Positions 39,001 to 42,000 of a stretch of 61,765 nucleotides of DNA are shown piece after piece (within the stretch, counting starts at the first letter, position 1; each line of letters opens with the position of its first letter). Origin of the DNA: Stx2 converting phage I; sequence record AP004402. One strand, given 5' to 3'. Position numbers: made by a program.

Positions 39001-42000
39001 GCCAGCTTCCCAGCCAGCGTTGCGAGTGCTGTACTCATCCGTTTTATACCTCTGAATCAATATCAACCTGGTGGTGAGCAATGGTTTCAACCATGTACCG
39101 GATGTGTTCTGCCATGCGTTCCTGAAACTCAACATCGTCATCAAACGCACGGGTAATGGCTTTTTTGCTGGCCCCGTGGCGTTGCAAATGATCGATGCAT
39201 AGCGATTCAAACAGGTGCTGGGGCAGGCCTTTTTCCATGTCGTCTGCCAGTTCTGCCTCTTTCTCTTCACGGGCGATCTGCTGGTAGTGACGCGCCCAGC
39301 TCTGAGCCTCAAGACGATCCTGAATGTAATAAGCGTTCATGGCTGAACTCCTGAAAATGGCTGTGAAAATATCGCCCGCGAAATGCCAGGCTGATTAGGA
39401 AAACAGGAAATGGGGTTAGTGAATGCTTTTGCTTGATCTCAGTTTCAGCATTAATATCCATTTTTTATAAGCGTCGACAGCTTCACGAAACATCTTTTCA
39501 TCGCCAATAAAAGTGGCGATAGTGAATTTAGTCTGGATAGCCATAAGTGTTTGATCCATTCTTTGGGACTCCTGGCTGATTAGGTATGTCGATAAGGCGT
39601 TTCCATCCGTCACGTAATTTACGGGTGATTCGTTCAAGTAAAGATTCGGAAGGGCAGCCAGCAACAGGCCACCCTGCAATGGCATATTGCATGGTGTGCT
39701 CCTTATTTATACATAACGAAAAACGCCTCGAGTGAAGCGTTATTGGTATGCGGTAAAGCCGCACTCAGGCGGCCTTGATAGTCATATCATCTGAATCAAA
39801 TATTCCTGATGTATCGATATCGGTAATTCTTATTCCTTCGCTACCATCCATTGAAGGCCATCCTTCCTGACCATTTCCATCATTCCAGTCGAACTCACAC
39901 ACAACACCATATGCATTTAAGTCGCTTGAAATTGCTATAAGCAGAGCATGTTGCGCCAGCATGATTAATACAGCATTTAATACAGAGCCGTGTTTATTGA
40001 GTCGGTATTCAGAGTCTGACCAGAAATTATTAATCTGGTGAAGTTTTTCCTCTGTCATTACGTCATGGTCGATTTCAATTTCTATTGATGCTTTCCAGTC
40101 GTAATCAATGATGTATTTTTTGATGTTTGACATCTGTTCATATCCTCACAGATAAAAAATCGCCCTCACATTGGAGGGCAAAGAAGATTTCCAATAATCA
40201 GAACAAGTCGGCTCCTGTTTAGTTACGAGCGACATTGCTCCGTGTATTCACTCGTTGGAATGAATACAGTGCTTATTCGTACTAATAAAATACCCAATTT
40301 TCTGTTTCTTGGTTGTGTCCAAAGTTATATTCAATATCTGGTGTTGATGTATCAATATTCTTCATACCATCAACAAGAGTTGATACAACAGCCAAATCTT
40401 GTTTGATTCTCATTAAATGGTATTTCTTCCGGCGCAATAAACTTTCAATGGCAAGTTTCTTCGTTGGGAATGCAAAAGATCTTTCTGCATTTTTTGCTAC
40501 TTTCTTAATTGCATATCTATTTCTCCTTTGTTTCCATTCCTGTAACCACTGATTTGGTGCTGGTTTAAAATTAACAATCCAATGCGCAGGAACCAACCAT
40601 GCATAATGCTCTGTCTGATGAAAAGCTATATATTGAAGTGCGAATATTTTTATCCCATCTTCTTCAACTGTCGCCTGGAATCTCCAGAAAACAGGCATTC
40701 CATCATGTTCAGTTTCTGATTCAGGAAAAGGTACGCTCCATGATTTTGTCATATCTCACCTCAAATAAGTGGTTTGCTGCCTAATTTCATTTTCTGGCGA
40801 CCAACACAAGTCACCTCGCCGTCAGTTGTTTTGATTTCCGGTAGCCTGCCGCGTAAATGGCTACGTTTGGAAGACATACACCAGTTTCTGGTTGCTTATG
40901 TCCAAACTCATTCGCGTACACAATGGCCGCTCGCTCCAGATTGCGTCTGTATTCTTTCTGTTGCCAGATCACGTCCTGTGCCATGAACTTAATTGGCTTA
41001 GCGTCTTCTATGCGCTCAGGCGTTTCGTGAGTACCTTTAGCCTGAATCTGCGCTCTGCTTAGAGTAGGGCGGTGTAATACTTCTGAACTTATTGCTTCTT
41101 CGCGGGCCAGTACGCCGTTAGCTAATGCCTTTGCCTTTAAACGCTCACGACGACGAGAACGTGAATTGCCTTTGAACTGAGTTCTGCGTGTCATATAGAC
41201 CTCCTGATGAACTTTGGTGGTGTGGTAGGTGGGAGACCCATTTCGACCTGTTTCGGCCTACTTCAATTCGGCAATAGTCCCGCAGGCCTCGCCGCTTTAC
41301 GTGCGACATATTCCCGTCCATGAACCCTTCACCACACCCCAAAGTTCACTTTGGTTATTGCGCTTTGTCAGCGCCGTAGATTCATATTCGAATCGTTGTA
41401 TATTCACCGCCCTGGTGAGTAATGCGTCCTGCTGACGACGATAATAATGAACCAATAGTTCGACATTATCAAGAACTATTGGTACGAATTTTGGTGATTT
41501 ATTAACTCTACGAAGTATGATTCTGATATATAAGGAAATTTATTTTTGAAAATGTGGCTGATGAAGGTTATGCGGCAGGGATCATAACTGCATGGTTTAG
41601 CGAGTTACATCAATAAATACAATTGGTTATGTTTTTTAGGTGGGCGAACGTGAGGCAAAGAAAACCCGGCGCTGAGGCCGGGCTAGATTTTAAAGTATTT
41701 ATCTTTTAGAGATGTAGATGTAAAACTTTTCGCCTTTGAAAATTTTTTGTCATCAGAAGGGCTTATGAACTCATCTTTTTTGTAGGGAACCGCTAATGCT
41801 GCATCACGTCTGCGAGGCAGCTTGCTTACTTCCTCGCGCTTTTTCATGATCAGTTATCCTTTAATAACCTATACAGTTTTGTAGGGGTACATCCTGAGGA
41901 TATTGTTAAGTTCGTAGCACGCCTTTTCCGCCCATCATCGTATAAACGAAAACCAGTAGTAGACGAATTTTCTGCGTCAAAAACTATAGACAGTATAGCG

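Follow-up and report, generated by a model that had tools for sequence, protein, structure and literature searches.

A conserved AT-rich gene next to N in Stx phages is carried as a mobile cassette and may encode an immediate-early accessory protein

Lambdoid phages differ in what they carry between the antiterminator gene N and cIII. In lambda the interval holds SieB (PF14163), orf28 and Ral (PF11058). Lambda Ral lies beyond the terminator tL1, and SieB is membrane-associated and expressed from the prophage. In T7 the anti-restriction protein Ocr, a strongly acidic DNA mimic, is among the first proteins to be made. Accessory regions in enterobacterial phages have been defined by Silas et al. 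(bioRxiv 10.1101/2023.04.06.535777; Nat Commun 2025, PMC12373910), and the ral region is one of them, carrying counter-defence genes together with abortive-infection triggers (bioRxiv 10.1101/2023.04.06.535777). According to the same authors, the ral region also includes orf184, a gene that acts as a trigger of the gop-beta-cII abortive system of P4 (Silas et al., bioRxiv 10.1101/2023.04.06.535777).

The corresponding interval was analyzed in a 61,765-nucleotide sequence of Stx2 converting phage I (AP004402), which is referred to here as the window. The ORF listing of the window contains a 156-aa ORF with an ATG start at 40282..40752 (-), preceded by a good ribosome-binding site. Its GC content is 35.7% (GC3 26%) against a window mean of 49.4%, which places it in the lowest 1.7% of 471-bp windows of this sequence. 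The initial annotation had described an AT-rich ORF of this length at this position, lying between ea10 and N in a slot where lambda carries ral and sieB, with flanks near-identical to lambda, and most of this description was borne out. The segment from exo through bet, gam, kil and cIII to ea10 (37229-40268) is 97.7% identical to lambda 31001-34040, and the lambda homology ends 14 nt past the stop codon of the ORF. In the Pfam scan that we used throughout, the lambda proteins of the interval were readily recovered (Ral, E 1.6e-48; SieB, E 1e-29), and it is indeed a variable accessory slot, for which Ral, SieB, GP17, DUF5484, Nmad5 and orf184 have been seen or reported. The place of the ORF was also given correctly, but the N gene next to it is the H-19B/933W allele (PF25694) and not lambda N. 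The features of the locus are collected in Table 1.

Table 1. Features of the N to ea10 region, in window coordinates
Feature	Position	Strand	Basis or remark
pL-like sigma-70 promoter (TTGATA-17-CATTAT)	41444..41472	-	consensus scan; upstream of nutL
nutL	41362-41428	-	933W annotation mapped to the window
Antiterminator N, H-19B/933W/HK97 allele, probably co-transcribed with the ORF	40811..41194	-	PF25694, E 2.1e-15; 933W annotation
Spacer between N and the ORF, 58 nt; upstream recombination joint	40753..40810	-	other frame reads ...GEVTCVGRQKMKLGSKPLI*
Shine-Dalgarno sequence GAGGTGAG	40755..40762	-	2-4 nt 5′ of the ATG of the ORF
156-aa ORF (PHROG 1636 member)	40282..40752	-	ORF listing; 933W, HK97 and Phi24B matches; purifying selection; AlphaFold2 pLDDT 96
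Conserved linker, 120 bp; downstream recombination joint	40149..40268	.	pairwise blastn boundaries
Intrinsic-terminator-like hairpin GCCCTC-CAATGT-GAGGGC with T run	40160..40181	-	about 104 nt past the ORF stop; HK97 annotation
ea10 (DUF2528), lambda-like downstream neighbour, outside the cassette	39765..40133	-	ORF listing, lambda alignment, Pfam

Between 37001 and 43500 the window is 99.95% identical to phage 933W, and the product of the ORF is 933W L0079 (100% amino acid identity). The same protein is known as Phi24B vb_24B_11c and as RefSeq WP_000167595.1, HK97 gp45 is 99.4% identical to it, and in H-19B it is encoded by an unannotated ORF between N and gene 17. We found it in 87 phage records, the carriers including 933W, H-19B, Phi24B, Min27 and HK97. 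The gene is also present in 598 out of 5426 complete E. coli genomes (~11%), with up to four copies per genome. Wherever a plasmid record matched, the plasmid was non-mobilizable and its copy near-identical (at least 98.7% amino acid identity); these matches we take to be prophage DNA. Every record annotates the product as 'hypothetical protein' or 'prophage protein', and a literature search under its names, its accession numbers and PHROG 1636 found nothing relevant. A 'gp45' mentioned in a preprint on OLD was considered as a possible reference to the HK97 protein and rejected, as it belongs to phage HK578. The sequence is therefore already known, long annotated and never studied. As a mobile accessory gene in the early-left operon of lambdoid phages the gene is of a familiar kind; its family and fold are without a characterised relative.

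Close homologues (55-85% identity) are carried by Escherichia, Salmonella, Cronobacter, Pectobacterium, Brenneria and Rosenbergiella phages and prophages, and 40 columns are invariant in an alignment of twenty full-length ones. Between genera synonymous sites are saturated (pS 0.75-1.0), with pN at 0.19-0.27; the only unsaturated pair gave a dN/dS of 0.13. The invariant columns, the purifying selection and the confident AlphaFold2 model described below demonstrate that the ORF is a genuine gene and not a chance reading frame.

In an exhaustive profile search the family grew to 87 cluster representatives (E up to 1e-3), among them a distant group whose proteins have 130-155 aa. The initial annotation had recognised no family. 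The general collections were indeed silent: the protein had no match in Pfam (E up to 10) or in NCBIfam, and in PADLOC-DB 2.0 the only match was to Cas1_II at chance level (E 0.018, 12.4 bits, 45 residues). It is, however, a full-length member of PHROG 1636 (function unknown), residues 1-156 aligning with positions 1-156 of the 156-position profile at E 2.7e-112. All 73 sequences of the homologue alignment match the same PHROG, and many of them also match PHROGs 13631 and 25384, both families without known function. No Pfam domain was found in this set of 73. Apparent domain fusions among three distant matches (P0066, P0080 and P0051) were set aside as uninformative, as they look like low complexity or chance.

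Members of the wider family occur in phages only and are associated with early regions. In a Cronobacter P22-like prophage the homologue lies between N and cIII, and in Pectobacterium and Brenneria prophages it is the final early-left gene before xis-int. In Bas81 and in Salmonella phage NX263 it is the first gene of a small operon that also contains RusA and a ParB-like gene. Distant members were found in the early-left operons of prophages from Marinobacterium and Pseudomaricurvus, upstream of xis-int, and of metagenomic prophages, and among small genes without known function in N4-like, Vibrio, Brevundimonas and Erwinia phages, where they mostly adjoin replication or nucleotide-metabolism genes. 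Some relatives reside in apparently virulent phages, such as N4-like Schitoviridae and a 164-kb Erwinia myovirus. At five of these loci an orphan DNA methyltransferase is present within a few kb, which may reflect only the usual content of early-left operons.

The structure of the protein was predicted with AlphaFold2. A run using the 20 close homologues as input gave a pLDDT of 59.5; with the 73-sequence alignment in their place the pLDDT was 96.0 and the pTM 0.82. In the latter model long strands (residues 19-30, 33-46 and 50-55) are followed by short helices (56-61 and 66-74), a strand (83-86), a 33-residue helix (98-130) and an ordered C-terminal tail. The structure prediction and remote homology search proposed in the initial annotation yielded a confident model, but neither a solved fold nor a family of known function was matched. 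The fold search of this model against the PDB returned no solved structure, and a sequence search of the PDB with two profiles found nothing below E 0.5. In the viral model library there were 12 matches at E up to 1e-3, all of them uncharacterised proteins, from Erwinia, Rhizobium, Sinorhizobium, Achromobacter, Delftia, Tenacibaculum and Cellulophaga phages, among others.

The protein had been described as not obviously membrane-bound, and this agrees with our analysis: it contains no hydrophobic or membrane segment, the maximum 19-residue Kyte-Doolittle mean being 0.56. It is basic (pI 9.07; family median 8.9, with no member below 6), with a net charge of +12 over residues 56-130 and acidic termini. 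Residues conserved throughout the family are R24, G33, E/Q46, T47, K83, K84, K87, R/K92, K98, A101, R108, K109 and F155; position 46 is Q in the 933W subgroup and E in distant members. No catalytic signature is visible among them, and they make up a basic patch and not a recognisable catalytic set. GIY-YIG-like and ribbon-helix-helix readings of the conserved motifs were tried and dropped, because their patterns are a poor match and no Pfam hit supports them.

In 80 IMG/VR contigs encoding the identical 156-aa protein, we clustered 700 bp upstream and 900 bp downstream of the gene. The upstream flanks fell into at least 30 clusters, the downstream flanks into at least 22. On the upstream side the gene is preceded by N alleles of the H-19B, lambda, phi21 and P22-like types, by a Nun-like gene, by Nmad5 (PF18757) or by small genes without known function; downstream there may be ea10 (DUF2528), GP17 (PF17420), cIII/kil directly, or others. 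Ral, P22-type GP17 (PF17420), DUF5484 or Nmad5 adjoin the gene in other carriers.

The Shine-Dalgarno sequence is TTTGAGGTGAGAT or a one-base variant of it in all 72 IMG/VR copies checked. A terminator-like hairpin is present within 150 nt 3′ of the ORF in 70 of the 72; it is the same hairpin as in the window in 62 copies and a one-base variant in one more, while in seven copies the stop codon is immediately followed by an unrelated hairpin (GGCCG-CATAGT-CGGCC and a T run). A terminator directly downstream, as expected of a moron, is thus present. The 120-bp linker that includes the terminator is common to lambda, HK97, Huey and phi367. On the other side, the spacer and the end of N, read in the other frame (a 38-aa ORF at 40761..40877), still give the C-terminus of a lambda/phi21-type N, which locates the upstream joint in the 3′ end of N. 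Lambda/phi21-type N alleles precede the identical gene in other prophages, where the N stop falls within the Shine-Dalgarno region of the ORF. The homology with Huey extends to 40814.

Phage phi367 carries ral immediately upstream of the 156-aa gene, side by side with it, and H-19B carries the gene plus gp17, so it is not an allelic replacement of ral. Phage phi296 also has ral alongside the gene. In Sakai Sp5 the slot is occupied by a different, 83-aa gene and the 156-aa gene is absent, as it is from lambda. Overall, the gene is an independent unit and not an allele of ral or sieB, and the cassette consists of the N 3′ end, the ORF and the terminator; it stands alone, with no constant partner gene. 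It has the properties of a lambdoid pL-operon accessory gene: it is on the strand of N, downstream of N and upstream of cIII, the recombination genes and xis-int, and it is variably present. This early-left placement was seen in 933W, HK97, Huey, phi367 and H-19B and in the Cronobacter, Pectobacterium and Brenneria prophages.

Promoter and terminator consensus scans were performed over positions 39700-41700. The order on the (-) strand is pL-like promoter, nutL, N, spacer, ORF, two hairpins and the terminator-like hairpin at 40181-40160. The pL-like site is the sole promoter-like site upstream of the ORF on this strand within the scanned region; no sigma-70 consensus site was found between pL and the ORF, although weak or non-canonical ones could escape such a scan. 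The stretch from pL to the ORF has a single terminator-like site, which lies inside N (40892-40880) and is weak, its stem being 5 bp long and its T run poor. The hairpin at 40160..40181 is the first strong site of this type after pL, and in HK97 the matching site after gene 45 is annotated as 'putative terminator'. An Rfam scan near the ORF detected the cIII thermoregulator only.

Since the ORF follows pL, nutL and N without a strong terminator before 40181-40160, we infer that N and the ORF would be transcribed from pL together, as an N-independent immediate-early transcript; this reading comes from consensus scans, and Rho-dependent termination between N and the ORF is possible. The 156-aa protein seems to be the sole product besides N made before N-dependent antitermination. 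A tM site at 41684-41663, upstream of pL, ends the pRM transcript, which runs from cI through stk to L0081. As no promoter of its own was detected and the pRM transcript stops there, expression from the prophage would be unexpected, and the gene is probably silent under repression.

We propose that the 156-aa protein is an immediate-early, lytic-cycle accessory protein that binds a host factor or nucleic acid, and we put the probability of this at about 0.4. Along with N it would be expressed from pL, ahead of the first early-left terminator, at the very start of infection or induction. It is small, soluble and probably non-enzymatic, and it would most likely act stoichiometrically through its conserved basic surface, to which a host factor or a nucleic acid could bind, and it would serve host takeover or counter-defence during lytic growth. 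Lambdoid phages could exchange the cassette by recombination in the conserved N 3′ end and in the conserved linker that bears the terminator. Accessory functions that are proven or at least named, Ral, SieB, GP17 and orf184, are found in the same slot. The protein has no similarity to known counter-defence proteins by sequence or by fold, and position in a variable slot is in itself weak evidence of function. A bolder version of this proposal, which we offer tentatively, is that L0079/gp45 founds a functionally new class of immediate-early effectors with an unseen fold. Made alongside N and ahead of all other phage proteins, it would bind directly to, and so neutralise, an immune system of the host or a host factor associated with the nucleoid or with RNA.

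The main rival to a host antagonist is a role internal to the phage. The protein could be a DNA- or RNA-binding accessory factor that takes part in replication, recombination or early transcription, such as a regulator or a helper of the Red/Erf/RecE module. An internal role with DNA or RNA is no less compatible with a basic surface. We regard this explanation as unlikely on balance, though it is a serious competitor. If the gene were a dispensable helper of this type, the finding would be an ordinary one.

A third explanation is restriction alleviation, in line with the anti-restriction functions that the initial annotation had named for this slot; the protein would then be a functional analogue of Ral and protect unmodified incoming DNA from type I or other systems. 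The gene occupies the interval of lambda ral, it is probably expressed before any gene except N, as Ocr is in T7, and its distant homologues are often near orphan DNA methyltransferases. Yet it coexists with ral in phi367 and phi296, and its product is basic, not an acidic DNA mimic, and has no similarity to Ral (PF11058), Ocr, ArdA or ArdB/KlcA. Unlike ArdA and KlcA, it was not found on conjugative or mobilisable plasmids. DefenseFinder, run by the authors of the phi345 and phi367 genomes, reported only methyltransferases, Ral and Gam as anti-defence genes in these phages (PMC12502783). The case for restriction alleviation does not extend beyond position and is weakened by the coexistence with ral, the basic charge and the absence from mobilisable plasmids, and we consider it improbable.

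The initial annotation had also named superinfection exclusion as a function common in this slot. A superinfection-exclusion or abortive-infection factor analogous to SieB would be expressed in the lysogen and act against other phages. The Stk kinase, encoded in the neighbouring 933W immunity region, is described as excluding HK97. This neighbour, the presence of lambda sieB in the same interval, and a low GC content followed by a terminator, which resembles a moron, could be taken to favour exclusion. The evidence is largely contrary to it: the protein lacks a transmembrane segment (its 19-residue hydropathy reaches 0.56 at most), the scan found nothing promoter-like from pL to the ORF, and the pRM transcript stops at tM before pL is reached. 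Furthermore, homologues occur in apparently virulent phages, no PADLOC match was obtained beyond the 12-bit chance one, and the gene is on the pL strand, opposite to lambda sieB. Exclusion is accordingly disfavoured and appears very improbable. That the gene is a functionless passenger, spread passively by the two recombination-prone conserved segments that flank it and without a known phenotype, is scarcely credible in the face of strong purifying selection across genera, 40 invariant residues, a family that spans many phage groups with a confidently predicted fold, and a protein that is 100% identical across dozens of contexts.

The gene has been without an assigned function since 933W, H-19B and HK97 were sequenced. 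It is well defined and experimentally accessible, and it resides in medically relevant phages. It is also a tractable target, with a confident model that has no solved counterpart, a family present in many phage groups and a 99.4% identical copy in HK97, which is a safe model phage. The period before antitermination is when incoming phage DNA meets host defences, and a function exerted then would have consequences for the range of hosts open to Stx phages and for their spread. If the protein does represent a new class of effectors, it could influence which E. coli strains Stx phages infect and lysogenise, because most 933W-like Stx2a and Stx1a phages carry the gene.

Comparison with the systems described above places the gene as follows. 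In the timing suggested for it, as one of the first proteins made after DNA entry, the 156-aa protein is analogous to T7 Ocr; it differs from Ocr in its pI of 9.07 and its basic core, with no match in fold or sequence, and the Pfam scan detected no similarity to Ocr, ArdA or ArdB/KlcA. Among possible structural comparisons are small Tudor/SH3-like proteins consisting of a beta-barrel plus a helix, such as PipX (PDB 3n5b). SieB (PF14163) and P22 GP17 (PF17420) share the variable N-cIII interval, and the protein matched neither profile. A separate GP17 gene adjoins it downstream in H-19B and in some prophages. Lambda sieB is annotated on the opposite strand, whereas the 156-aa gene is on the pL strand, and unlike SieB its product has no hydrophobic segment and the gene no detectable promoter of its own.

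With lambda Ral (PF11058) the gene shares the pL-operon interval and the character of a small, soluble, non-essential accessory gene. Ral has 66 aa compared with 156 aa here, without sequence similarity or a match to PF11058, and the 156-aa gene appears to precede the first terminator, unlike lambda Ral beyond tL1. The position of 933W L0079 and HK97 gp45, after N and before the terminator, is shared with the ORF of the window. The 156-aa sequence is absent from the list of 200 accessory genes tested by Silas et al., and identity with orf184 was considered and rejected, as the deposited orf184 model begins MEALVVERSEDGYWT. Both orf184 and the 156-aa gene are widely distributed and belong to the same accessory region, and the case of orf184 demonstrates an interaction between genes of this slot and host immunity.

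The slot between N and cIII is a hotspot and houses numerous small, unstudied genes. Among the comparison loci that carry the identical 156-aa gene, the Nmad5, GP17 and DUF5484 proteins are further cargo of this slot in prophages. In an 11-locus cluster of E. coli prophages, represented by an IMG/VR prophage contig (L036), a 112-aa protein is encoded at 2529-2867, immediately before the identical cassette, which consists of the N 3′ end, the 156-aa ORF and the terminator. A Pfam search gave no match for this protein, which may correspond to the HK022 Nun termination factor rather than to an N antiterminator. 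Another small gene of the slot, MMCEFYEADIKRPEM..., is UDP0057 in the accessory-gene list of Silas et al. (bioRxiv 10.1101/2023.04.06.535777).

Features in the window and in comparison loci (L numbers)
Feature	Location	Strand	Basis or remark
Lambda cIII thermoregulator RNA element (RF01804)	39647-39705	-	Rfam match, 88.5 bits, E 1.2e-21
Hairpin with 11-bp perfect stem, GUAUUCAUUC...GAGUGAAUAC	40240-40271	-	begins ~10 nt past the stop codon of the 156-aa ORF
38-aa ORF, second frame over 3′ end of N	40761-40877	-	ends in ...GEVTCVGRQKMKLGSKPLI and stop
Immunity region: Stk, 153-aa protein, small ORFs	41850-43351	-	
DUF5484 protein	L037 2809-2946		
Nmad5 protein, nucleotide-modification associated	L038 2314-2934		PF18757
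P22-type GP17	L048 3615-3926		PF17420
SieB, lambda	L013 3483-4037 (lambda 34482-35036)	+, opposite to pL operon	lambda RefSeq annotation

The 933W-type N stops, at ...KQLTAR, sooner than the lambda/phi21-type reading frame, and the C-terminus of lambda/phi21-type N proteins is the same as the end of the 38-aa ORF. This second-frame stretch therefore seems to be left over from a different N allele, and it marks a mosaic joint within N. The stop codon of the 38-aa ORF, TGA at 40763-40761, overlaps the 156-aa ORF's ribosome-binding site.

On the 3′ side, a second long hairpin lies between the 11-bp-stem hairpin and the terminator, and folding of this 151-nt region gave z = -4.4. The hairpin segment is common in part to lambda. 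Two nucleotides of 933W are missing from the window at 40265, where the first stem has its 5′ foot.

The neighbouring immunity region looks like a prophage-expressed accessory module beside the 156-aa ORF: Stk (a eukaryote-like kinase of 348 aa), the 153-aa protein (a RuvC-like resolvase according to the Phi24B annotation) and the small ORFs are all AT-rich (35% GC) and are carried on the pRM transcript, which ends at tM (41684-41663).

Five loci with distant homologues of the 156-aa protein (L111, L112, L113, L030 and L026), from marine gammaproteobacterial and metagenomic prophages and one Vibrio phage, have orphan DNA methyltransferases (PF00145, Dam and MT-A70 types) within a few kb in the early-left operon. 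This proximity may be coincidence.

In lambda, the plus-strand frame annotated as SieB is also matched by the Pfam SieB model (E 1e-29). The lambda occupant of this interval thus differs from the 156-aa ORF not only in sequence, but in orientation too.
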